Shown: in pieces, positions 9,522-32,556 of the stretch
Position numbering within the stretch: the first letter of the stretch is position 1
Layout: each line of letters begins with the position of its first letter
NCBI GenBank assembly: GCA_046538795.1
Contig: JBKHIF010000006.1
Location: 1 to 34,029, forward strand
DNA: 34,029 bases
From: Candidatus Woesearchaeota archaeon
GTDB taxonomy: Archaea > Nanobdellota > Nanobdellia > Woesearchaeales > CAZJJJ01
Direction of reading: 5' to 3'
The notes under the pieces: generated by a model
Database searches by the model: none
Seen by the model: only the letters and a program-made list of their open reading frames with translations
What the model was told of the DNA's origin: nothing
Position numbers and translations under genes: made by a program

Positions 9522-11291
9522 TTATCTAAGGAGCGCCTTATTATGTGCTTCTACATAAAATTTCACAAAATCTCTCCAGTCAGTAAGCTGTGTTGATCCT
9601 TTTGCATCCATCTTATATTTTACGCGCTCGTGATGGTCAAGTTCTGAAAATCTGCATAAGAAGTCAGTAAAGTTCTTAAGAGATTCTTCTTCTGATTTGC
9701 CGAATCGTTCAAGTACATATATGCCTTCCCTGTCTTTTAGTTTTGGTTTTATGAACCTGCCGAAACCAGCAAGGTCTGAAGTGAGAGATGGAACTCCCAT
9801 AGAAGCACATTCAACAGGAGTATATCCCCAGGGTTCATAATAGCTTGGAAAAACACCCAGATGGCAGCCGCACATGGCTTCATAGTAAGGAAGATCAATT
9901 AGGCCATCAACTCCATTTAGATATACTGGATAATGGACAACCTTTACGTTGTCATCCATGTTGTTTACTAGGTTGTTTTCCCTAAGTGCTTTTTCAATAG
10001 GATCTTCTGCCTCATTTCCAAGATAATGAGTTGATATAGGCGGATTTCCCTCTCTTCTGAACCTGTTTAGGTGTCTCTTGTTGCTTATTAGAAATTCTTT
10101 TGAAAAAAGAGTTCTTCTTGTAAGATCCTTGTTTGAGACAATATCCATGACTATTTTTTTCTCGATTTCTTTTGAATGTGATTCAACATAATTTTTGATA
10201 TGCCTATAGAATGTTTTGTTCTCAAGAAGCTCTGTCCTTATTCCTCTTGCATCTCCGGGTATCCAGAATAATGCAGCAATTGTCCTTTTGCTGTTTTTTT
10301 CTTTCAGATAATTGTTCAGCCTTGCAAGAGCCTTAATAAAAAGATCAATGCCTTTATTCCTGAACTCATATCTTCCCACGATAAAAAATGTAAGTGTATG
10401 ATCCATGTCAAACTGGTAATAAGGGAAAAAGAAATATGTCAAAAACTCCCTGATCTTGTCTTTTGATGAGATATGTATCAATGATGTCTCTTCAAAAGAA
10501 GGAAATTTTTCTTCATCCAGGCCGTTTAGCACAAGCACATCTGGTTTTTTTCCAAGAAGCTTTTCTGCTTCTATCCCTGTAATTTCTGAAACTGTCGTGA
10601 ATATGTCTGAATTTTCTGCGCATGCCTTTTCTGTAGAGAACTTGTCCATAACCCCAAGCTCTTTTGCGGTTTTTTCAGGTTCTATATTATCAAGTTCATT
10701 GTAAAGCTCTCTTCCGTTTCCTGCAATGCTTCTACCAAGCATGGTCGCATGTGTTGTGAATACTGTTTTTACATGAGAATCTGCTGACTTTAGCCACAAT
10801 GAGCCAAATCCTGAAAGCCATTCATGAAAATGGCCTATAATCTTCTTTTCTTTGTTCTCTTGTCCGAAACATTCTATGAGTTTTCCAACAGCAGTTGACC
10901 AAAGCATAGGTTCAATAAAATCCCAGCTTGATGATATTGAGTCAACTTTGTATTTTTCCCAATACATCTTCTGTAACTCATTCTGACTGTCTTTTGTTCC
11001 CATGAAATCAACAAGTATTGTATCTGGCTCCCCTTTGATCTGCCATTTTCCAAAATGACATATTATACCCTCTTTTTTCAATTTTTCATCTATTTCCCTA
11101 AATTTTTCAGGAATCTCTGTTTCCAGAAATTCAACATCTGTCCTGTCGTTGTAATAGGGTCCTATTAGAAAATAATTCTTGTAGTAGGTTTTCATTGCCG
11201 CAGCTTTTGACTTTACAACAGTATAGATTCCCCCAACCTTGTTGCAAACTTCAAATGAAACCTCAAATACATAATCTGCTTTTGTTTCCAT
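9522..11291 (-). CDS. Glycogen synthase, GT3 family
   Basis: FEVSFEVCNKVGGIYTV, HFHEW, FTTHATMLGR, GRYEFRNKG, CHLGVFPSYYEPWGYTP. Start placed at METKADY behind GAGG; 11333 is an alternative start. Confidence 0.93.
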   Translation of the reverse strand: METKADYVFEVSFEVCNKVGGIYTVVKSKAAAMKTYYKNYFLIGPYYNDRTDVEFLETEIPEKFREIDEKLKKEGIICHFGKWQIKGEPDTILVDFMGTKDSQNELQKMYWEKYKVDSISSSWDFIEPMLWSTAVGKLIECFGQENKEKKIIGHFHEWLSGFGSLWLKSADSHVKTVFTTHATMLGRSIAGNGRELYNELDNIEPEKTAKELGVMDKFSTEKACAENSDIFTTVSEITGIEAEKLLGKKPDVLVLNGLDEEKFPSFEETSLIHISSKDKIREFLTYFFFPYYQFDMDHTLTFFIVGRYEFRNKGIDLFIKALARLNNYLKEKNSKRTIAALFWIPGDARGIRTELLENKTFYRHIKNYVESHSKEIEKKIVMDIVSNKDLTRRTLFSKEFLISNKRHLNRFRREGNPPISTHYLGNEAEDPIEKALRENNLVNNMDDNVKVVHYPVYLNGVDGLIDLPYYEAMCGCHLGVFPSYYEPWGYTPVECASMGVPSLTSDLAGFGRFIKPKLKDREGIYVLERFGKSEEESLKNFTDFLCRFSELDHHERVKYKMDAKGSTQLTDWRDFVKFYVEAHNKALLR

Positions 11292-11618
11292 AATATCCTC
11301 TTGCAGGCAGAAGACAGATATTCCTGCTTGCATGTTATTCTAAAGAAACTTGCTTTATAATCTTTGTTGACTACGTAATAATGCTAATCAGCATGCTATG
11401 AAAATCAGGATATAAAATACTATGTTCAAATTATTGAAAATTTCGAATGAAACACGATTGAAATCTTGTTTCAATGTGCGCAGAAATTTAAAAAATTTCT
11501 TTTCGTTTTTGTGGGGTTTGCTCTGGAAGGGTATTCTTCGAGCAGGTAGGAGAACAGCTATCAGTTTGAGTTATATTAAAAAATAATAGAAATAAATACA
11601 GTATTTTGGCGTGAAAAA

Positions 11619-12560
11619 CTATTTTCTTTCCTTTTCCATGAAGAAATCAACAGTCCTTTTCATGCCTTCTTTAAGATCAATTTCAGGACTCCATCCAAGA
11701 TCTTTTTTTGTTCTGCTTATGTCAAGATAGATCTGCCTTACTTCTCCAGGTACAGGATCAACATGCCTTGCAAAAAATTCTTTTTTAAGATAGTCAAACA
11801 TAGTCTCTTTAAGCATAACAAAAAGCTCATTTACACTTGTTTCTTTTCCAAATCCTATATTAAATTCCCTGTTTTCAGTATCCTTGTCAAGTGCAATAAG
11901 GTTTGCCCTCGCAACATCGCCTACATATACATAATCCCTTGTCTGGTTTCCATCTCCGAATATCAAAGGATCTTCTCCAGCCATCATCTTTCCGATAAAT
12001 ATGGAAATTACTCCTGCTTCGCCTTTTGGATCCTGTCTTGGACCATAGACATTACCATATCTCAATATCCTGAAATCAAGATTATAAAGCCTGTTGTACA
12101 GATTGACATATTCTTCTCCTATATATTTAGTCAATCCATAAGGGCAAAGAGGTCTTATTGGATTTGTTTCAGGAGCTGGATTTTTTGCAGGCTCTCCGTA
12201 TATTGCTCCGCCTGAACTTGTATATATTATTCTTTTTATATTATGCTTTACGCAATTCTGAAGTATATTTATAGTCCCCTTAACATTTATCTCTGCATCA
12301 AGAAGAGGCTCATCCACTGAGATTCTTACATTTGCCTGTGCTGCAAGGTGATATACTATTTCAGGAGATTCCTTTTCAAAAACAGAATCAAGTTTCTTGT
12401 TTGTTATGTCCACTTTGTAGAATCTTGCTTTCTTGTTTATGTTTTCTTTGTTTCCTGTCCTAAGATTGTCTACTATTGCAACATCATGACCATTTTCTAT
12501 GAGAAGATCAACCACATGGCTTCCTATAAAGCCTGCTCCGCCTGTAACTAATATTTTCAT
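11619..12560 (-). CDS. galE: NAD-dependent epimerase (UDP-glucose 4-epimerase-like extended SDR)
   Basis: MKILVTGGAGFIGSH, HLAAQ, SSGGAIYG, YGLTK (YxxxK), YGNVYGPRQDPKGEAGVISIF. Confidence 0.9.
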   Translation of the reverse strand: MKILVTGGAGFIGSHVVDLLIENGHDVAIVDNLRTGNKENINKKARFYKVDITNKKLDSVFEKESPEIVYHLAAQANVRISVDEPLLDAEINVKGTINILQNCVKHNIKRIIYTSSGGAIYGEPAKNPAPETNPIRPLCPYGLTKYIGEEYVNLYNRLYNLDFRILRYGNVYGPRQDPKGEAGVISIFIGKMMAGEDPLIFGDGNQTRDYVYVGDVARANLIALDKDTENREFNIGFGKETSVNELFVMLKETMFDYLKKEFFARHVDPVPGEVRQIYLDISRTKKDLGWSPEIDLKEGMKRTVDFFMEKERK

Positions 12561-12634
12561 TTTAGCTAAAAGAAACATGTCTTATTTATAATATTTTCTT
12601 ATAAGGTTTGATGAATTTCTTAAAAAAGAAAATT

Positions 12635-13249
12635 TCAGCATACAAAAATATTTTCTTTGGGAACCTCTTTTTTGATCTTGCCTTTTTCCATATTATAATC
12701 AGGAAAATAATTATGAAAGACCCGTAGAGGCATAACATTTTGCATAACCTCGATATTCTTGATGACATATGAACCTAATTTGGAAGTGAATTTAGGTACT
12801 ATCTCAACATTCACGATTTCTATTATATCGCTTTCCACTCTGCTTCTGATTATGCAATGGTATGCCACCCGGCCATCCTTCTCTCCAAGCCAATCTGTAA
12901 GGATGTGCTTCCTTAGAACTGGCTCGTTCATTATCTTGTCGTCATTAAGAACCCCTAAAACCTGCTCCCTGCTGATCCCGTAATCAAAATATATTGTATA
13001 AAGCTGCATTGCACTGAAAACTCCTGTACCTTCTCGTCCATTGTTGGGAACCACAAAATAATACATATAATTGTTATTTTCCATGCGTTTTCTTTTTCTA
13101 TTTACAGTTTTTACAGGAATCCCTGTTTTTTTTGATATCTGATTGTCAGATATTGTAGGATCTTTTATGATCTCTCTTAATATTTGTTCTTCCTTGAAAT
13201 CAATTGTTTTATCGACTATATTGCCTTTAAATTCATCTTTTTTGGCCAT
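12635..13249 (-). CDS. Lrp/AsnC-like winged-HTH transcriptional regulator
   Basis: EQILREIIKDPTISDNQISKKTGIPVKTVNRKRKRME matches the AsnC-type HTH, followed by a putative effector domain. Confidence 0.75.
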   Translation of the reverse strand: MAKKDEFKGNIVDKTIDFKEEQILREIIKDPTISDNQISKKTGIPVKTVNRKRKRMENNNYMYYFVVPNNGREGTGVFSAMQLYTIYFDYGISREQVLGVLNDDKIMNEPVLRKHILTDWLGEKDGRVAYHCIIRSRVESDIIEIVNVEIVPKFTSKLGSYVIKNIEVMQNVMPLRVFHNYFPDYNMEKGKIKKEVPKENIFVC

Positions 13250-13389
13250 TTTATGTTATTATTGGTAAAAAAGATATATAAATGTGTCGATTTATTCTTT
13301 ATTTTGTTTATATATGACCTATTTTTGGCATTAATGTTCTATATATGGCTTTTTTTTGATATTTTTCTTTTATTTATTCCTTATTTTGA

Positions 13390-13403
13390 GAAAAGTTTAA
13401 ATA
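13390..13403 (+). promoter_or_regulatory. Putative BRE/TATA of the GT4 gene
   Basis: gaaaag-tttaaata, archaeal consensus, in the divergent intergenic region. Confidence 0.55.
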
Positions 13404-13629
13404 ATAGTTATGTCAGAGTAAACTTAGTTTGGGTATTAAGGGAAATAGGGTAAAAACAGGCTGATAAAATGGTCTGCTATTAAGGTTTGCAACAAAAAAC
13501 ATAATTGGGATAAAAATTTGTTTTTTGTTAAAAAAAGGGTGTCTTGATTTTGACTTTTGATACCCGTAAAGCTATGCAACCTGGCTAAAATGAATGTTTT
13601 GTAAGTTTTGACATACGCGAGGTATTAAA

Positions 13630-14988
13630 TTGAAAGTATTGATGTTCGGCTGGGAATTCCCTCCATTTAATAAAGGGGGTCTTGGTACAGCTTGCTATGG
13701 TCTTACAAAAGGCCTTGACAACAAGGGGGTAAATGTGACTTTTGTTCTTCCAAAAGCAGGCAGATCAACAAAAGGTCATTCAACGCATGTGAATCTTCTT
13801 GTAGCATCTGATTATTATATGCAAAACGACAACATACAATTCAGGACAATAAATTCTCTTCTTATGCCCTACATATCTTCTGAAGAATATGCATATATGT
13901 ATTCAAAAAATAAGATGAAAGGCAAAATGAAAGAAGGCGCGATGGCTGCAGAAGAAGATGAGGTATATGGAAAAGATCTTTTTTCAGAAGTTCACAGATA
14001 TGCTGACAAAGCAAAGCTTATTGCAGCTCTTGAAGATTATGATGTCATACATGCTCATGACTGGATGACTTATAAGGCTGGACTTGAGGCAAAAAAAATA
14101 TCTGGAAAACCCCTGGTCGTTCATGTTCATGCGACTGAGTTTGATAGAACAGGTGGAAATCCCAACCAGTATGTTTATGATCTTGAAAGAGAGGGTATGC
14201 ATGGCGCTGACAGGGTGATAACTGTGAGTGCATTTACAAAAGACAAAGTGGTTGAGAATTATGGTGTTTCTCCTGACAAGATTACTGTTGTACATAATGC
14301 AGTTACATTTAATGATAATAAGTTTGACGTTGATAAGATAAAGATGTCTGATACCGATAAAATGGTGCTTTTTCTGGGAAGGATTACTATTCAGAAAGGT
14401 CCTGATTATTTCCTTTATGCTGCAAAAAAAATACTTGACCTCTTGAAAGAAGAGAAAAAAGAGAGCGCAGATATTTCTCAAGAATCAGAAAAAAAAGAGA
14501 TCAAAACAGGATATGCATATTCCAACCATGAATCTGATGTAAAAACAAATATGGATGTCAAGTTTGTATTTGCAGGAACAGGCGATATGGAGCCTCTTAT
14601 GGTAAAGAAGGCCGCAGAGCTTGGCATAAGCAGCAATGTGCTTTTTGCAGGATGGGTCACAGGACCTGACATCGACAGATTATATTCAATGGCAGATCTT
14701 TATGTGATGCCTTCAGTTTCAGAACCTTTTGGAATCACGCCTCTTGAGGCGATGAGAAATAATACACCCTGCCTTATATCCAAACAAAGTGGTGTTTCTG
14801 AAGTAGTCTCTCATTGCCTCAAGGTGGATTTTTGGGATGTTGATGAGATGGCGAACAAGATCATGTGCGTCCTTAAGCATTCTCCTCTGCAGGAATGCTT
14901 AAGAAAGAATGGTTTTGAAGAAGTGCATAAGTTTAGCTGGGATTTGCCTGCTGAAAAATGTGTTGCAGTCTATAATAGCCTGTTATGA
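13630..14988 (+). CDS. GT4 glycosyltransferase (alpha-glucan/glycogen synthesis type)
   Basis: GWEFPP..GGLG, IHAHDW, HVHATEFDR, FLGRITIQKGPDYF, PSVSEPFGITPLEAM. TTG start behind GAGG. Confidence 0.92.
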   Translation: MKVLMFGWEFPPFNKGGLGTACYGLTKGLDNKGVNVTFVLPKAGRSTKGHSTHVNLLVASDYYMQNDNIQFRTINSLLMPYISSEEYAYMYSKNKMKGKMKEGAMAAEEDEVYGKDLFSEVHRYADKAKLIAALEDYDVIHAHDWMTYKAGLEAKKISGKPLVVHVHATEFDRTGGNPNQYVYDLEREGMHGADRVITVSAFTKDKVVENYGVSPDKITVVHNAVTFNDNKFDVDKIKMSDTDKMVLFLGRITIQKGPDYFLYAAKKILDLLKEEKKESADISQESEKKEIKTGYAYSNHESDVKTNMDVKFVFAGTGDMEPLMVKKAAELGISSNVLFAGWVTGPDIDRLYSMADLYVMPSVSEPFGITPLEAMRNNTPCLISKQSGVSEVVSHCLKVDFWDVDEMANKIMCVLKHSPLQECLRKNGFEEVHKFSWDLPAEKCVAVYNSLL

Positions 14989-15177
14989 GATGCAGATTAT
15001 CATAATGTTGAAAATTGCTTTTTGAAGCATAATCTTACTTAGGTAAGTATGGCTGGTAAGTTGAGATTATCAGTAAAAAATATGATTAATACGCTAGATT
15101 TGGTGTGATTATAGTTAAGAAAAATAAATTTTAAAAATAATATAATAGTTTTGATACGTCATCAGGAGGGGGATTTA

Positions 15178-16527
15178 ATGGTAAGCATATGTTTTTATTT
15201 TCAGGTTCATCAGCCATTCAGGATAAAGAAATACAGGATATTTGATATAGGAAACAGCCACGACTATTTTAACGAGGAAAGAAATATCCATGAATGCAGA
15301 AAAATTGCAGAAAAATGTTATCTTCCTGCAAACCGCCTAATGCTTGATCTTATCAGGCAGACTGAAGGTAGATTCAGGATTGCATATTCTATTTCAGGAG
15401 TTGCTTTGGATCAGTTTGAGAAATACACTCCTGAGGTTATAGATTCTTTCAGGGAGCTTGCAGATACAGGCGCAGTCGAGTTCCTTTCTGAAACTTATTA
15501 TCACTCGCTTTCTTTCCTGTATTCAAAACAAGAATTTGAGGAGCAGGTTGCGCTTCACAAAAAAAAGATCGAAAAATTGTTTGGACAGACTCCCAAGGTT
15601 TTCAGAAATACAGAACTAATATACAATAATGAACTTGCAAGTTATGTGGAAAAGATGGGATATAAAGGCATCCTTGCAGAAGGTGCTGATCATGTCCTTG
15701 GCTGGAGAAGTCCTAATTTTTTATACAGGCCTCATACTGCTGAAAATATTGTTCTTCTTCTGAAAAATTACAAACTCTCTGATGATGTAGCATTCAGGTT
15801 TTCAAACAAAGGCTGGGAAGAATGGCCTCTTACAGCAGAAAAATTTGCTCACTGGGTTTCAAACAATAACGGAAACGGATATGCTGTAAACCTGTTTATG
15901 GATTATGAGACATTTGGAGAGCACCAGTGGGCTGATACAGGAATATTTGATTTTATGAGGCAGCTTCCGCATGAGATCTTCAAGCATCCGCATAATGATT
16001 TCAAGACTCCTTCAGAACTAATTGATGCATATCCTGTGGCTGGTGATCTTGATATACATTCCCCTATATCCTGGGCTGATCTTGAAAGGGATCTTAGCGC
16101 ATGGCTTGGAAATCCCATGCAGCACAACGCGATAGACCAGATATATCAACTAGAAGAAACAGTAAAACAATCAGGAGATGAGAAACTTATCTCTGACTGG
16201 AGAAAGCTTACTACGAGCGACCATTTCTATTACATGTGTACAAAATGGTTCTCTGACGGAGATGTGCATAAATACTTTAATCCTCATGACAGTCCTTATG
16301 AGGCTTTTATAAGTTATATGAATATATTGAATGATCTTTTGATAAGGCTGAAAACAAAAAATGTATCTGCAAATATTCCTGAAAATGGTCCTCGGGAAGC
16401 TTTGAAAGATGTTATGGCAGTTGCAGGATCAACATCTGTTGCTGATGAGGTTTCTGGTGTAAAAACAACTGCTTCGGCAAACATTCCTTTAGAAACTCCC
16501 TCGGTCAAAGATTTTTCCACTGAATAA
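15178..16527 (+). CDS. GH57 glycoside hydrolase (alpha-amylase-like)
   Basis: FQVHQP, ETYYHSL, FRNTEL (nucleophile Glu), MDYETFGEH (acid/base Asp), SDHFYYM. ATG 15178 follows GGAGGGG. Confidence 0.93.
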   Translation: MVSICFYFQVHQPFRIKKYRIFDIGNSHDYFNEERNIHECRKIAEKCYLPANRLMLDLIRQTEGRFRIAYSISGVALDQFEKYTPEVIDSFRELADTGAVEFLSETYYHSLSFLYSKQEFEEQVALHKKKIEKLFGQTPKVFRNTELIYNNELASYVEKMGYKGILAEGADHVLGWRSPNFLYRPHTAENIVLLLKNYKLSDDVAFRFSNKGWEEWPLTAEKFAHWVSNNNGNGYAVNLFMDYETFGEHQWADTGIFDFMRQLPHEIFKHPHNDFKTPSELIDAYPVAGDLDIHSPISWADLERDLSAWLGNPMQHNAIDQIYQLEETVKQSGDEKLISDWRKLTTSDHFYYMCTKWFSDGDVHKYFNPHDSPYEAFISYMNILNDLLIRLKTKNVSANIPENGPREALKDVMAVAGSTSVADEVSGVKTTASANIPLETPSVKDFSTE

Positions 16528-16621
16528 GAGATCTGAAAAATCATATTTTCAATTTTAAACTTTTTTATTGTATTTTTTTCAAAACATATAAAAACCATTA
16601 ATATAATATTTGTTCATATGA

Positions 16622-16672
16622 CATATTAAACCACCCTTTCTTATGGATAGGGTGGCTTTTGTCGTTAATATG
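16622..16672 (+). repeat. Nested inverted repeat (hairpin) in 5' leader
   Basis: CATATTAA 16622-16629 / TTAATATG 16665-16672 encloses CCACCCT 16631-16637 / AGGGTGG 16649-16655. Confidence 0.7.
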
Positions 16673-16689
16673 ATTTTTGGGATGGTATT

Positions 16690-18258
16690 ATGAATAAAGA
16701 TGATGTTGCTCCGGACAAGTATTTTTATATTCATGATGGGAGATCTATTAAGAATATATCAGAGCTTGCATCTATGCTTTCTTCTATGGATGATGCTGTC
16801 TTTTCTTTTCACGTCAACGAATCAAAGAATGATTTTGCAAGCTGGGTGAGATTTGTTGTTGATTCTCCTCAACTTGCCGATTCTATGGATAACGTAAAAG
16901 ATAAGGATAAGATGGCTTCTTTGATACTAAAATCTATTTCTGGAGAGGATGGGGAAAAGGTGTCTGAAATTTCTGGCAAGTCTCAGGAAAATAATAAAGA
17001 AGATGAAGTTCTGGAAAAATCTGCTGGCGAAACTAAAACAGTTCGTGAAAAAAAAGTGCAAAAATCACATGATTCTGATCTTTTCTCTTTTTCATCATCT
17101 AATAAGCATGAAGAAAAAAAGAACAAATCTGGAAAAATCAAGACTGGCGATCTAAAAAAAGAAAACAACGGTTCTTCAAAATTACCGCCTGTAAAGGAAA
17201 AAAAACATCATGATGAAAAATCTCCTCCAAAAAATAAATCGTCTGCAAAAAGCTCTGTTCTTTCTAATAAATATGAAGATGATTTTGATTGGAAGAATAT
17301 GCTTGATGATATGAAACTTGGAGAGCAGGAAGATATGCTTTCAAGGATAAGTAGAAGGATAAAAGAGATGAACTCAGAGATAAGCGGCGAAGGTAAAAAA
17401 ATATCATCAGATAAGGAATTTGAAAAAAACAAAAAAGAAAGCTCAGAAGAGATGGAAAAATATGTCAAATCAGATGATTCTGAAAGATTTGAGTCTCTTG
17501 CAGATGATTCTGTTGATTTTCTTGAAGAGCTTTCAAAAAGATTGGAATCTCATAGAAAACGATTTTCAGAATCAGATAAAAAACAAGAAGACATACACGA
17601 ATTTCATCCTGCAAAGAAAATCATCAAAAAGGTGGTAAAAGAAGATGCAGATCCTGAACTGATTATTGAAAAAGGGCTTGATCTTGAAAAAACAAATAAG
17701 CTTCTTTCAAAATATAACTCTATTATGAACGATACAGTGAAAAAAAGTATGAAGAGAACTTCTATGCATACATCTGGTGATGATGATTCATCCAAAGAAA
17801 AAAGAGAAAAACATGTTTCTCATAAGACTTATCATCATAATCGTTCTCAAGATAAAAAACATAAGACTGGAGAAAATAATATTGGTTATTTCAGTATAAT
17901 AGAAAGAACTGATGATCTTGAAGGCATAAGTTCAAAATTTGAATCTGATGATGACGGCGATAGCGGGCAAACTTTTGATGATGGGTCTGCACATGAAAAA
18001 ACTGATGAGAAGCAAAAAAAGGAAAAAAGTTCAAAAAATAAAGTATCAAAAGGAAATTCGCGTGGCTTTTTCAGCATCTTTAAAAAATTAAAGATGGGTT
18101 CTCTTAATTCTGTCGGTGCAATGGAACATGAAAAAAAAGCACAGGAAAATATTACTGTCATACGAGATCCTCTTGTGGAAATATCAGGGATATCTGATTT
18201 CATAAAAGGTCTTCTCATAGGTATGATTATCGGGATGGTTTTTCTTCTGGTATTTTGA
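16690..18258 (+). CDS. Hypothetical protein: DUF5752-like N-terminal domain, long charged low-complexity region, C-terminal TM anchor
   Basis: FYIHDGRSIKNISELASMLSSMDDAVFSFHVNESKNDFASWV; K/E/S/D-rich middle; ends FIKGLLIGMIIGMVFLLVF. Confidence 0.75.
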   Translation: MNKDDVAPDKYFYIHDGRSIKNISELASMLSSMDDAVFSFHVNESKNDFASWVRFVVDSPQLADSMDNVKDKDKMASLILKSISGEDGEKVSEISGKSQENNKEDEVLEKSAGETKTVREKKVQKSHDSDLFSFSSSNKHEEKKNKSGKIKTGDLKKENNGSSKLPPVKEKKHHDEKSPPKNKSSAKSSVLSNKYEDDFDWKNMLDDMKLGEQEDMLSRISRRIKEMNSEISGEGKKISSDKEFEKNKKESSEEMEKYVKSDDSERFESLADDSVDFLEELSKRLESHRKRFSESDKKQEDIHEFHPAKKIIKKVVKEDADPELIIEKGLDLEKTNKLLSKYNSIMNDTVKKSMKRTSMHTSGDDDSSKEKREKHVSHKTYHHNRSQDKKHKTGENNIGYFSIIERTDDLEGISSKFESDDDGDSGQTFDDGSAHEKTDEKQKKEKSSKNKVSKGNSRGFFSIFKKLKMGSLNSVGAMEHEKKAQENITVIRDPLVEISGISDFIKGLLIGMIIGMVFLLVF

Positions 18259-26818: not shown

Positions 26819-27451
26819 ATGATTGGTGTGCTCAAGAAGTTTCTAAAAAAGTTTCTTAAAAGGCTTTTCAAGAAGAAAAAAAATGTAAAATTAGGTCTAT
26901 ATGGACCGCCCAATTCAGGAAAGACTACTCTTGCTAATAGGATTTGCAAAGACTGGTTGGGGGAAGATATGGGTTCTGTTTCAAAAGTTGCACACGAGAC
27001 AAGAGAAGTACAGATCAAAGAACAGATTAATCTTAAATCTGGCAACAAAGAACTTCTGTTCAATCTTGTCGATACTCCTGGCATTGCAACAAAGATTGAC
27101 TATGAAGACTTCCTTAAGGCTGGGCTTAAAGAAGATATTGCGAAAGAGAGGGCCAAAGAAGCTACAAAAGGAGTTATAGATTCAATCAAATGGCTTGACG
27201 ACATGGATGCTGTCGTAATAGTACTTGATTCAACTCTTGATCCATATTCACAGGTAAATATAACTATAGTAGGTAATCTGGTCGCAAAAGACATCCCTGT
27301 CCTTATAGCTGCAAACAAGACTGATCTGAAAAAATCAGACATGAAAAAGATCCAGTCTGCTTTTCCCCAATATAGAGTTATCGGAATATCTGCTAAGCAG
27401 GGAAAGAATATTGATGAATTTTATGAGTCATTATTTGATCTGGTCGAATAG
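26819..27451 (+). CDS. oapA: Small Era-like GTPase OapA
   Basis: GPPNSGKTTLANRI, HETR, DTPG, NKTD, ISAK; DP..QVN signature; first gene of the conserved three-gene operon. Confidence 0.88.
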   Translation: MIGVLKKFLKKFLKRLFKKKKNVKLGLYGPPNSGKTTLANRICKDWLGEDMGSVSKVAHETREVQIKEQINLKSGNKELLFNLVDTPGIATKIDYEDFLKAGLKEDIAKERAKEATKGVIDSIKWLDDMDAVVIVLDSTLDPYSQVNITIVGNLVAKDIPVLIAANKTDLKKSDMKKIQSAFPQYRVIGISAKQGKNIDEFYESLFDLVE

Positions 27452-27525
27452 TTGCGATTATATCTTTGAGTAAAGTTTTTATAGCCATGGATTTTAAGAT
27501 TGAAAAAGTAAGATTTTGAATTAAA

Positions 27526-28023
27526 ATGCTGACACTACAATTTATTCCATATGCAGAAATTGAATCCCTTAATTCACATTCCAGGATCCAAAAAGTTCTG
27601 GGCGTTATAAAAGATAATAAGATAGTTCTTATGGAAGGAAGGCTGAAAAAATCTGAAGAAGCAGAACTCATAAAAAAAACTATGGAAGAGATCGGCGAAA
27701 ATGCAGATAATGATTTTAAGGGAATTGAGCTTTCAGTTATACAGCCATCTCTTAAGAATAAGGATTTCTTCAGGCAGTTAAGGTACAGGTTTATAAATAT
27801 GATATTAGGAGATAGGCAGGGTTTCACTGTTGTAGGTCCTGCATCGATTGTAAAAGAGATAAAACAGGATCCTGATAAGCTTCAGCTTTTCATAGAAAAT
27901 ATTTCATCAGGTACATTATCTGTAGAAGATAACAGCACTTCATCAGATTATGAAGAAAACAATTCTAAAAACAATGGAAAAAAAAAGAAACGATCAAAGA
28001 AGCATAAGATCGGAAAGAGATAA
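27526..28023 (+). CDS. oapB: DUF2073 family protein OapB
   Basis: IVLMEGRL..EEAELI..TM..I....F.GIE and G.TVVGPA motifs; operon position. Confidence 0.85.
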   Translation: MLTLQFIPYAEIESLNSHSRIQKVLGVIKDNKIVLMEGRLKKSEEAELIKKTMEEIGENADNDFKGIELSVIQPSLKNKDFFRQLRYRFINMILGDRQGFTVVGPASIVKEIKQDPDKLQLFIENISSGTLSVEDNSTSSDYEENNSKNNGKKKKRSKKHKIGKR

Positions 28024-28025
28024 AA

Positions 28026-28439
28026 ATGCCTCATCAATGTGTTAGATGCGGAGCCATGTATGAAGATGGTTCTAATGAGATCTTGAAGGGCTGCTCATGC
28101 GGAAGCAAATTGTTCTTTTTTATAAAAAAAGAAAAGATAGATGAGCTTAAGAATGCCACTGTCAATCTTTCAGAAAATGAGAAAAAGCAGTTGGAAAAAG
28201 ACGTTCTTGATATAGTCGGCGAGAGAAAAAATGTGGAAACTGGCCCTGATGATGTCATTGTTCTTGACTTTGAATCAATAAGAGCCTTAAAACCTGGTGT
28301 CTTTGAACTGGATCTTGTAAATCTGTTTAATGAGAAAAATCCTTTGGTATATAAGCTTGCAGAAGGTAAATATGTTATTGATATTCCAGAAACCTTTTCA
28401 AGACATGGCAAGGAAGGTAAAGAAAAAAAAATGATCTAG
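28026..28439 (+). CDS. oapC: Zn-ribbon DUF2072 family protein OapC
   Basis: MPHQCVRCG..Y.DGS.EILKGCSCGSKLF; ESI...PG.FELDL..L; EGKY.I. Confidence 0.88.
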   Translation: MPHQCVRCGAMYEDGSNEILKGCSCGSKLFFFIKKEKIDELKNATVNLSENEKKQLEKDVLDIVGERKNVETGPDDVIVLDFESIRALKPGVFELDLVNLFNEKNPLVYKLAEGKYVIDIPETFSRHGKEGKEKKMI

Positions 28440-30170: not shown

Positions 30171-31661
30171 TCAATTAGAAGACGTTTTTTCAAGATAATA
30201 TTTTCTGAAGTTCATCCTTATACGTGCAGATGACATGACCAATGATCTTCTTTTTAATCCGAGGGAAGAGGCAAGCTGGTTTAGGTCATGACCATTTCTG
30301 CATGCATAGGTTTCAAAAATTTCTCTGCATCGTGGTGATAATTCTGACATATATTGATCAACAATTTTTTCAACATCTTGATCATCAGATTTTTCTAATC
30401 CCTGAAAAAAATCTTCGATTATCTTTTCTTTAGAATAAGTTATTTCAGGAAGTTCATCTGCTTCCAGTTTATTATATAATTCTCTGAATTCCTGTCTTAT
30501 ATTTGAAGCTGCAACACCCAGACTCCTTTTTGTCAATCCAAAATCAGAAGCAATCTCTTCAAGAGGTTTATCAGTTTCATTCCTGTTTGCATAAGAAACC
30601 AGCCTTTTTCTTTTTTCAGAAGGTAAATTGCTTACATATCTATGCATAAATTCAACTGTGTGGATAGATGGCCTTTTTGGAAAATCATATAACATGAAAT
30701 CTTCCACACTTTTAAGACATGCCTCAGGATAGATCTCTCTTTCAAAATCATCTTTTTCTGATCCAAATATAGATCTTAGAATTTCTGAAGAATCTATGAA
30801 ATCCTGATATATATTTATGTCCGGTTTGCCGATTTTCGCATGATCAAAACCAATCTGAAATTTCTCAAATTTTTTACTTACCTTTTTTTCAATCTGTCTT
30901 GTTCTTTCTTTACTGATTCCAAGATCATTTCCAATAGCTGATAATGAATTTCCATTTTTTTCATATTCATTCAAAAGGATTCTTCTTTTGAATACTTCTC
31001 TTTCGGTCTCATTTAATGTGGGAAGAAAATGTACAAGTATATCTCTTGCTTCGAAAATTGGATCACTTCTTTGTTTAAATTCTGCATTTTTATCTTCAAT
31101 AATGTCACTTAGTTCAGTATATCCATCAGAATTTTTATAAACTTCTTTATTGAGTGAGGAAACTTCAAGCGCATTTATCATTTTATTTATAATTTCCGGC
31201 TTAATCTTGAAGTAATCAGAAATTTCTTCAATGCTAGGATCTCTTTCATGTGTTTTTCTGAATTCATCTTGGTATTTTGATATTTGATTGAGAATATTGA
31301 TTTTGTTTTCAGGAATTCTTATTGTTGCAGAATTTTTTATGGCTTTTGTTATTTTTTGCCTGATCCACCAAACTGCATAACTTATAAAGTGATATCCTTT
31401 GTCAACTTCAAAGCGGTCAACAGCATCAATGAGTCCTTCATTACCCCAGGATATTCTTTCTTCAAGACTTAATCCATTATATTTTTTGGCAACATTGACT
31501 ACAAACTTAAGATTTGCCTCAACAATCTTGTTTTTGATATCTGGATCTTTTGTTTTTTCATATAAAGAAAATAATTCTTTTTCTTCTTCAGGTGTCAAGA
31601 GAGGGACCTTATTTATCGAAATAAAATAATTTTTGAGAGAATCCAACTCTGTATTTTTCAT
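30171..31661 (-). CDS. Bacterial-type RNA polymerase sigma-70 (RpoD/SigA-like) factor with C-terminal extension
   Basis: Region 1.2 DSLKNYF..I.KVPLLTPEEEKEL; region 2 EANLKFVVNVAKKY...GYHFISYAVWWIRQ; region 3 TIRIP...RDPSIEEIS; region 4 L..IG..LGISKERTRQIE. Confidence 0.92.
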   Translation of the reverse strand: MKNTELDSLKNYFISINKVPLLTPEEEKELFSLYEKTKDPDIKNKIVEANLKFVVNVAKKYNGLSLEERISWGNEGLIDAVDRFEVDKGYHFISYAVWWIRQKITKAIKNSATIRIPENKINILNQISKYQDEFRKTHERDPSIEEISDYFKIKPEIINKMINALEVSSLNKEVYKNSDGYTELSDIIEDKNAEFKQRSDPIFEARDILVHFLPTLNETEREVFKRRILLNEYEKNGNSLSAIGNDLGISKERTRQIEKKVSKKFEKFQIGFDHAKIGKPDINIYQDFIDSSEILRSIFGSEKDDFEREIYPEACLKSVEDFMLYDFPKRPSIHTVEFMHRYVSNLPSEKRKRLVSYANRNETDKPLEEIASDFGLTKRSLGVAASNIRQEFRELYNKLEADELPEITYSKEKIIEDFFQGLEKSDDQDVEKIVDQYMSELSPRCREIFETYACRNGHDLNQLASSLGLKRRSLVMSSARIRMNFRKYYLEKTSSN

Positions 31662-31662
31662 A

Positions 31663-31691
31663 TTGACAAGTGTTCACATATTATTTATAAT
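31663..31691 (+). promoter_or_regulatory. Exact sigma-70 consensus promoter sequence TTGACA-N17-TATAAT
   Basis: TTGACA at 31663-31668, 17-bp spacer, TATAAT at 31686-31691. The match is exact; function is unproven. Confidence 0.6.
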
Positions 31692-31697: not shown

Positions 31698-31752
31698 TGT
31701 TCTTTTCTGCTTTTACACAATATTTATAAGTATGTTAGAGTAAAAAACATTT

Positions 31753-32556
31753 ATGCTAAAAGTAGATCTTCACCTTCATGCTTCAGAAGACAAACGCGAA
31801 CCTGTAATGTTCTACGATGCAAAGATGCTTATAGATAGGGCAAAAGAGCTTGAGTTTGATGCTCTTGCTATAACTCTTCATGACCAGTTTTTCTACAATG
31901 AAGATATTAAAAAATATGCGGATTCACGAGATATAATACTTATTCCGGGAATAGAGAAAGAAATTGAAGACAAGCACGTACTTATACTTAACATAGATAA
32001 ATATCCTGATATAGATAAGCTTGAAGATTTGGCAAAACTTCCCAAATCCTCGTTAATAATAGCTCCCCATCCATTTTATTTTATAGGACGGTCAGTAGGC
32101 AAGTTCCTTAAGGAAAATCCGTCATTATTCCATGGGGTTGAATATAATTCAGTTTATTTGTCTTTTCTTAATTCAGCGAACAGAAAGGCAAAAAAGTTTT
32201 CAGTAGCCCATAATCTTCCTTTGGTAGGAAATACTGACTGTCATTTATTGTCTCAATTTGGCCGCACATACACACTCGTCGATGCAAAAAAAGATAAAGA
32301 ATCTATAATACGTGCCATAAAGAACAATAAAGTCATTCTTATGACAAGGCCTCTTGGTTTTTTTGTCTTTGTGAAATTTATATTAAGGTCAATACTTTCC
32401 AAGTTTGCTGAATTATTTGGCATTAACATGAAAAAGGTTCATAAAACAAAAATAAAAAAAATAAACGACAGAACAGAACAAAGAAAAAATATTAAGCCTA
32501 AAACTGCTGAAAAAGCTGATGATTCATGGGATGAAGACCTGAAAGATCCTTTATGA
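31753..32556 (+). CDS. PHP-family metal-dependent phosphoesterase
   Basis: KVDLHLH, DALAIT.HD, IPGIE, H.L, IAPHP, GNTDCH. Confidence 0.88.
   Translation: MLKVDLHLHASEDKREPVMFYDAKMLIDRAKELEFDALAITLHDQFFYNEDIKKYADSRDIILIPGIEKEIEDKHVLILNIDKYPDIDKLEDLAKLPKSSLIIAPHPFYFIGRSVGKFLKENPSLFHGVEYNSVYLSFLNSANRKAKKFSVAHNLPLVGNTDCHLLSQFGRTYTLVDAKKDKESIIRAIKNNKVILMTRPLGFFVFVKFILRSILSKFAELFGINMKKVHKTKIKKINDRTEQRKNIKPKTAEKADDSWDEDLKDPL

Follow-up and report, generated by a model that had tools for sequence, protein, structure and literature searches.

A bacterial-type σ70 protein with a remodelled region 2.2 encoded in a Woesearchaeota genome

What does a bacterial-type promoter recognition factor do in a cell whose sole RNA polymerase (RNAP) is archaeal? 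The question is raised by a σ70-family gene in a 34,029-nt stretch of Candidatus Woesearchaeota DNA (the window), contig C35 in a 97.6% complete genome of 1.34 Mb. This genome encodes archaeal RNAP subunits B'', B', A' and A'' on one contig, as well as TBP and TFB, and no bacterial rpoB scores above cut-off in it. Three further σ paralogues are present in the same genome.

The gene is not an isolated curiosity. Roughly 40% of the genomes in this order encode a bacterial σ70 without a known job (PF04542 in 155 of 401 genomes, a tally that, alone among those given here, includes six unpublished genomes). Archaeal σ70 genes were reportedly first described by Rinke et al. in 2013. A literature search whose coverage stopped short of subscription papers found no residue-level study of them, and the word "sigma" is absent from the main text of PMC3852633 and of bioRxiv 10.64898/2026.05.13.725050. 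The available passages of Castelle et al. (2021, PMC8204110, Table S3) place σ70 genes in DPANN archaea, including 39% of 196 Woesearchaeota, and describe their mechanism as unclear.

The gene, its domains and its setting

The features of the gene and its surroundings are:

30171..31661, minus strand: σ70-family gene, 496 aa, regions 1.2-4.2 and a 220-aa C-terminal extension (Pfam and ORF)
31572..31643, minus strand: region 1.2, aa 7-30 (Pfam)
31431..31475, minus strand: region 2.2 helix GLSLEERISWGNEGL, aa 63-77 (comparison with RpoD)
31356..31379, minus strand: region 2.3/2.4 YAVWWIRQ, aa 95-102, -10 melting/recognition residues, common with Spirochaetota-like donors
31080..31292, minus strand: region 3, aa 124-194 (Pfam)
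30879..31025, minus strand: region 4, aa 213-261 (Pfam)
30888-30911, minus strand: KERTRQIE in region 4, aa 251-258
30462..30647, minus strand: candidate extra σ4-like helix-turn-helix A, ~aa 339-400 (Pfam below cut-off)
30180..30365, minus strand: candidate extra σ4-like helix-turn-helix B, ~aa 433-494 (PF08281, E=0.004, below cut-off)
31018..31019, no strand: contig break in a second sample, inside the σ gene (assembly comparison)
31753..32556, plus strand: divergent PHP-domain gene (Pfam), lying with the σ gene between a YchF-like gene and uS2

PF00140, PF04542, PF04539 and PF04545 all score above cut-off and follow one another as regions 1.2, 2, 3 and 4. Region 1.1 is absent, the N-terminus beginning at region 1.2. 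Chains of SigS and SigA holoenzymes match the fold of the protein. With the primary-σ model TIGR02393 it scores 154 (cut-off 354), and by this score and the lack of region 1.1 it falls outside RpoD/SigA. The C-terminal extension has a pLDDT of 39.7 when folded from its single sequence. Within it, the two candidate helix-turn-helix units align with region 4 and with one another, are helical in the predicted model, and both match Sigma70_r4 clusters of the Atlas, with values of 0.90-0.92 (their Pfam scores being below cut-off); the recognition helix of unit A lacks the ER.RQ motif. Locus L104 has a similar layout of σ plus two helix-turn-helix units. Some proteins of 900-1740 aa also contain σ70 domains, fused to long extensions that lack annotation (L065:1316-6538, L103:2634-5702, L206:1829-4825 and L093:2983-5688).

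A Pfam scan of the window ORFs identifies the neighbours of the gene as archaellins, OapB/C, a YchF-like GTPase and archaeal uS2. Three of five family relatives have the YchF-like gene head to head with uS2, an arrangement that the other two loci do not show; the σ gene is found in none of six relatives and the PHP gene in none of five. The σ/PHP pair is thus an insertion. In a second sample the contig breaks inside the σ gene, and two database entries from other assemblies (P0123 and P0122) are its truncated halves, which points to a probable interruption of the gene in some population. The gene appears dispensable, as it was not found in the six relatives and is probably interrupted elsewhere. 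Mis-binning was considered and rejected: the flanking uS2, YchF-like, OapBC and archaellin genes are archaeal, a 17-kb contig of run X1, possibly the source data, spans the stretch, and synteny of the flanks is preserved in relatives.

Other contents of the window include seven tandem archaellin genes (PF01917; 19821-24325), no other archaellum gene being recognised among the window ORFs scanned, and a GTPase with the origin-associated proteins OapB and OapC (26819-28439) beside the YchF-like GTPase, a linkage also seen in relatives. A glycogen/starch cluster with a eukaryote-type glycogen synthase (PF05693), GT4 and GH57 occupies 9522-18258.

Region 2.2: probably remodelled rather than lost

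Residues are numbered by E. coli RpoD (from NC_000913), the reference for comparison. Relative to it, region 2.2 carries L402E, D403E, L404R, Q406S, E407W, I410E, M413I and K414D, with I405, G408 and N409 unchanged. The residue letters that a sequence-only reading had given for region 2.2, YAVWWIRQ and KERTRQIE are those of the 496-aa ORF, and the DNA-reading residues Y430, W433, W434, Q437, T440, E585, R586, R588 and Q589 are, as it claimed, intact; outside these, R385K, K414D, R584K and E458N set the protein apart from σ70.

The clamp contacts listed for the σ32 holoenzyme in the available text of PMC10216364 are D77, E81, I84 and M87, the equivalents of L404 and I405 not being among them. 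Our mapping equates these contacts with σ70 D403, E407, I410 and M413 and with E68, W72, E75 and I78 here, so that the canonical D/E/I/M is replaced by E/W/E/I. Genetics adds L402, Q406 and N409 to the interface (in part from the available text of PMC8321222). The change from D-L-I-Q-E to E-R-I-S-W had been taken for a loss or remodelling of the core interface. Its letters are right, but two of the five positions are not listed clamp contacts, and I410E, which is at one, was missed. Moreover, 119 of the 120 best matches have S at 406 (and 117 of the 120 the YHFISYAVWW motif); S406 is therefore inherited from Spirochaetota-like donors, and E. coli is an unsuitable baseline for it. This leaves D403E, which is conservative, together with E407W, I410E and L404R; a 2-aa deletion precedes the segment. 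In comparison with four of the best bacterial matches, 14-16 of 18 residues are identical in region 2.3 and 8-12 of 20 in region 2.2.

How unusual is this pattern? The 135 control σ sequences (from 146 best representatives, unlabelled and selected for likeness to the query) define 37 sites that are at least 85% invariant. The query differs at five of these, against a median of eight in archaeal homologues (n=84), and three of the five fall among the nine such sites of region 2.2 (hypergeometric P=0.08), a clustering only modestly beyond chance. Two or more changes at the clamp contacts with all eight DNA residues intact occur in 5 of the 84 archaeal homologues and 7 of the 135 controls. The residue pattern is real but modest, and better read as remodelling than as loss.

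The archaeal homologues allow the claim that a bacterial core interface was lost while promoter reading stayed under selection to be judged at the level of the family. The set was drawn from 172 unique ORFs, 154 of them with regions 2 and 4 and 88 of these with an archaeal-type neighbour (an adjacent protein that shares at least 50% identity with one from the present genome); removal of near-duplicates left 84. (Unpublished genomes and up to 46 of 103 weaker matches were left out of the set, selection by a region-2 profile favours retention of region 2, and kin are not independent.) With residues assigned to what we take to be DNA-reading and structural site classes, D403 is retained in 89%, E407 in 76%, Q406 in 71% and N409 in 62% of the 84, and on the DNA side W433 in 67%, W434 in 82%, Y430 in 88%, Q437 in 73%, E585 in 87%, R588 in 85% and Q589 in 80%. 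D403 and E407 are kept in 34 sequences that miss a DNA residue; the reverse holds for 13. In 25 archaeal sister pairs, identity reaches 0.69 for the clamp sites, 0.63 for the -10 and 0.68 for the -35 sites, and 0.38 for all other positions (clamp against -10, P=0.28; clamp against background, P=1.4e-4). Clamp-facing sites are thus kept as well as DNA sites, the family as a whole has not lost the core interface, and the claim does not hold at this level. Since the clamp sites are conserved across archaeal homologues, an altered region 2.2 is not a signature of life in an archaeon. Contrary to what one would intuitively expect, archaea do not preferentially lose the surface that faces the polymerase.

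Two further observations stand beside this. Tandem arrays of two to four σ70 paralogues occur at L068 (G045:C3), L122 (G180:C6), L110 (G159:C42) and L185 (G000:C54), and in several of these one copy lacks DNA-reading residues yet has the region 2.2 acids. L064:348-2018, on a 2-kb contig of G396 with 59% GC, encodes a region 2 identical to that of E. coli RpoD; it is likely contamination and, having no archaeal-type neighbour, is outside the 84.

The changes at 407 and 410 go together. Position 410 lies one helix turn beyond 407 on the same clamp-facing face, and among the 84 archaeal homologues loss of the acid at 407 accompanies gain of an acid at 410 (4/19 against 1/65, P=0.009). The same covariation is seen in all 154 sequences (8/35 against 3/119) and in the 135 controls, which may be bacterial or archaeal (6/13 against 2/122, P=6e-6); the tree includes six carriers, which are scattered across it. 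Read as compensation, this argues that the surface is still in use. The best reading of the sequences is that region 2.2 has been retuned, not abolished, by a shift of the acid from 407 to 410, and the acid kept on the same face suggests that the surface probably still binds a partner.

Functional bacterial σ factors give a divided answer on whether such substitutions are tolerated. E407 is absent from named group 3 σ factors, but the exact W/E pair at 407/410 was seen in no named bacterial σ, and the swap in no named group-1/2 σ: all 29 primary σ factors parsed from 30 loci keep E407 with M or L at 410. Nothing close turned up in a search of phage sequences, no FliA was found in 79 genomes of the phylum of G413, and a PDB search with region 2 of the paralogue has only primary σ factors and RpoS in its alignments.

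The query forms a subfamily with P0124 and P0125 (clade support 0.996; 38-39% identity to the query). P0124 sits on a 1.29-Mb contig, P0125 lacks R586, Q589 and Q437, and no members beyond P0124/P0272 and P0125 were found by word-indexed search, genome scan and 400 other genomes of the phylum. Both share R404 and a hydrophobic residue at 407 but keep D403 and Q406, so that 407 is W, L or Y throughout. Across the three, which are only 37-39% identical overall, 43 of 45 structural sites are identical, and core sites agree at 5/12 against a background of 0.33. Of the alternatives "lost or remodelled" that had been left standing for the interface, remodelled is thus fair for this protein: the DNA residues are intact, a perfect σ70 site adjoins the gene, and 407 is hydrophobic in the subfamily. 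Loss is not borne out, D403E being conservative, S406 inherited and 407/410 a swap.

A candidate site and what the protein might do

The 91 bp between the σ and PHP genes contain:

31663..31691, plus strand: perfect TTGACA-N17-TATAAT, a candidate site 1 bp from the σ start codon and oriented away from the gene
31673 and 31712, plus strand: -35-like hexamers TTCACA and TTTACA
31683..31690, minus strand: archaeal TATA-like box TTATAAAT of the σ gene (read from the sequence; putative function)
31723..31730, plus strand: archaeal TATA-like box of the divergent PHP gene (read from the sequence; putative function)

TTATAAAT lies 21 nt before the ATG (leaderless geometry) and is overlapped by the -10 hexamer of the perfect site. 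This site, a single case spotted by eye after the fact, is one where 0.06 are expected in the window. Of six perfect matches genome-wide no other is intergenic, and no second one turns up in 1151 upstream windows, among which this site is counted for each of its two flanking genes. Shuffling the intergenic 91 bp regenerates a perfect site 139 times in 300000, or 422 times in 300000 with TATAAT fixed. No genome-wide regulon of σ70-type sites was found: 66 σ-positive genomes (two unpublished among them) have 65 perfect sites and 85 σ-negative genomes 75, or 0.98 against 0.88 each.

The intergenic segment has three TT(G/C/T)ACA hexamers, and 31673-31691 and 31712-31730 form a 19-bp imperfect direct repeat (15/19 by eye), with a -35-like hexamer and then a TATA box in each copy. 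Elsewhere, an 11/12 σ70-like site at G000:C55:39-67 (minus strand) immediately precedes a start codon in the same antisense arrangement, and one contig of an order genome (G039:C5) has seven perfect TTGACA-N17-TATAAT sites, probably in bacterial or phage DNA in the bin. The proposal that σ70 sites upstream of σ genes are a family trait was rejected, there being no significant enrichment: sites with at most one mismatch precede 4/165 archaeal σ genes against 6/876 (P=0.06), and 3/164 when the query gene is removed (P=0.16).

We tentatively take the protein for an autoregulator that binds DNA sequence-specifically, is dispensable to its host and has a clamp surface that was remodelled but not abolished; we give this reading a probability of about 0.4. 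The gene is intact and in an archaeal context, its host has only archaeal RNAP, the -10/-35 reading residues are all there, the autoinhibitory region 1.1 is missing, two σ4-like units have been added, and the perfect site overlies the start and the TATA box of the gene. The protein would bind that site. Once bound, it would block loading of TBP, TFB and RNAP at its own promoter, resulting in autorepression, and the divergent PHP gene might be affected as well. The partner of the retuned region 2.2 would most plausibly be the archaeal clamp coiled coil, whose binding need not be required for regulation. According to the available text of PMC3035472, free B. subtilis σA binds the -10 element without core but cannot read spacer length; a 17-bp spacer is therefore not expected from free protein, which counts against autoregulation, as do the DNA-reading residues missing from P0125 and the fact that the TATA box supplies much of the reverse TATAAT for free.

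A more active role, which we think rather unlikely, would have region 2.2 dock on the Rpo1N clamp coiled coil, the site of TFE and Spt4/5, and either direct RNAP to -35/-10 sequence or compete there. The archaeal clamp hairpin, near-invariant in 19 loci parsed of 30, aligns without gaps to the bacterial one, keeping R278 and I291, with R275>I, R281>E, E295>L and A302>H. W407 would then face I262/L282 (in place of bacterial R275/E295), and E403/E410 the retained R265 (=R278). Post-transfer conservation of clamp-facing sites at the level of DNA sites speaks for such docking. So, weakly, does a complex model of σ aa 5-115 with Rpo1N aa 8-340, which scores 0.57 against 0.00 for the best of three controls, with contacts agreeing in at least 86% and partner pLDDT of at least 85. 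(The mark is reached by 116/157 solved and 2/215 mismatched pairs, and at 0.60 or below by 18/157 and both mismatches.) The alignment used contained canonical σ factors, and the pass may reflect likeness to bacterial holoenzymes, which are solved structures. On the other side, most archaeal homologues keep E407 though the clamp lacks R275 and R281, there is no convergent archaeal signature, and part of the conservation of D403/E407 could have structural reasons. Archaea commonly lack the flap-tip helix by which σ4 is positioned (PMC8321222, available text), and TBP and TFB are present. The broader proposal that the σ70 homologues of these archaea dock on the RNAP clamp through a retuned 2.2 and bring or hold it at -35/-10 sites, as a hybrid route of initiation or repression, appears decidedly improbable; were it true, 31663-31691 would be its first native target.

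Slow decay of a transferred gene, with the region 2.2 changes due to relaxed selection and the perfect promoter a matter of chance or a relic, is an unlikely explanation. The patchy, polyphyletic distribution (a FastTree of 152 sequences splits the archaeal ones into 28 exclusive clades set among controls), long branches (median terminal branch 0.70 against 0.43), interruption in one population, near-background core sites in the subfamily and the P=0.08 for clustering speak for decay. It sits poorly with an intact 496-aa frame whose codon choice resembles that of the host (78th percentile among 642 genes), the near-identity of structural sites in the subfamily, and R404 with a hydrophobic 407 in all three members; a non-coding relic, moreover, would not be expected to stay perfect across such divergence. 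By analogy with phage-encoded σ factors, the protein might instead act on the bacterial RNAP of a host or partner cell, its holoenzyme surface only retuned. Family-wide retention of clamp-facing and DNA residues, repeated independent acquisition, and group 3 bacterial σ factors that work without E407 would fit, yet no export signal is evident by eye in the sequence, we know of no delivery route into a bacterial partner cell, the 29 parsed primary σ factors all differ at 407/410, and the σ70 site in the archaeon's own DNA would go unexplained; we consider this highly improbable.

Comparison with known systems

The closest known relatives are short RpoD/SigA-like σ factors of Spirochaetota (the best matches, Spirochaetota where named, at 41-46% identity). 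They likewise lack region 1.1, have S at 406 and the same YHFISYAVWW and KERIRQIE-type motifs, and fall with the query into one supported clade (0.90-0.99). Acquisition from a Spirochaetota/Bacteroidota-type bacterial lineage is, judging from these sequences, the best explanation of the gene. The Spirochaetota proteins keep D403, L404 and E407, together with a bacterial core, whereas the query has E, R, W and E at 403, 404, 407 and 410, and it also has the 2-aa deletion before 2.2 and the C-terminal extension.

Group 3 σ factors also have E407 replaced, by A in E. coli FliA, by S (with S406) in 6pfj/6pfv and by I in Brevibacillus SigF. In contrast to the query, this group (FliA, WhiG-type, SigF) keeps D403, has no W at 407 and no acid at 410, and reads other promoters; in regions 2.3-2.4 and 4.2 the query is group-1/2-like. 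The eroded σ70 of Hodgkinia provides a bacterial case of substitution at 403, 406, 407 and 409. Its β' partner is altered as well, and mutagenesis cited in the same paper only weakens binding (PMC8321222, available text).

The DPANN σ-70 family fam00359 (Castelle et al. 2021, PMC8204110) is likewise a bacterial-type σ70 native to an archaeal genome with TBP and TFB. The available passages contain no residue-level analysis, binding site or mechanism. The gene class was thus already reported; new here are a candidate native target, two extra σ4-like helix-turn-helix units, weak modelled docking and clamp retention at the level of the family. The 407/410 swap, the two extra units and the adjoining perfect site belong to the query copy. 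The question posed by Castelle et al. becomes testable at this locus, which offers a specific protein together with candidates for its native binding site and its docking surface.
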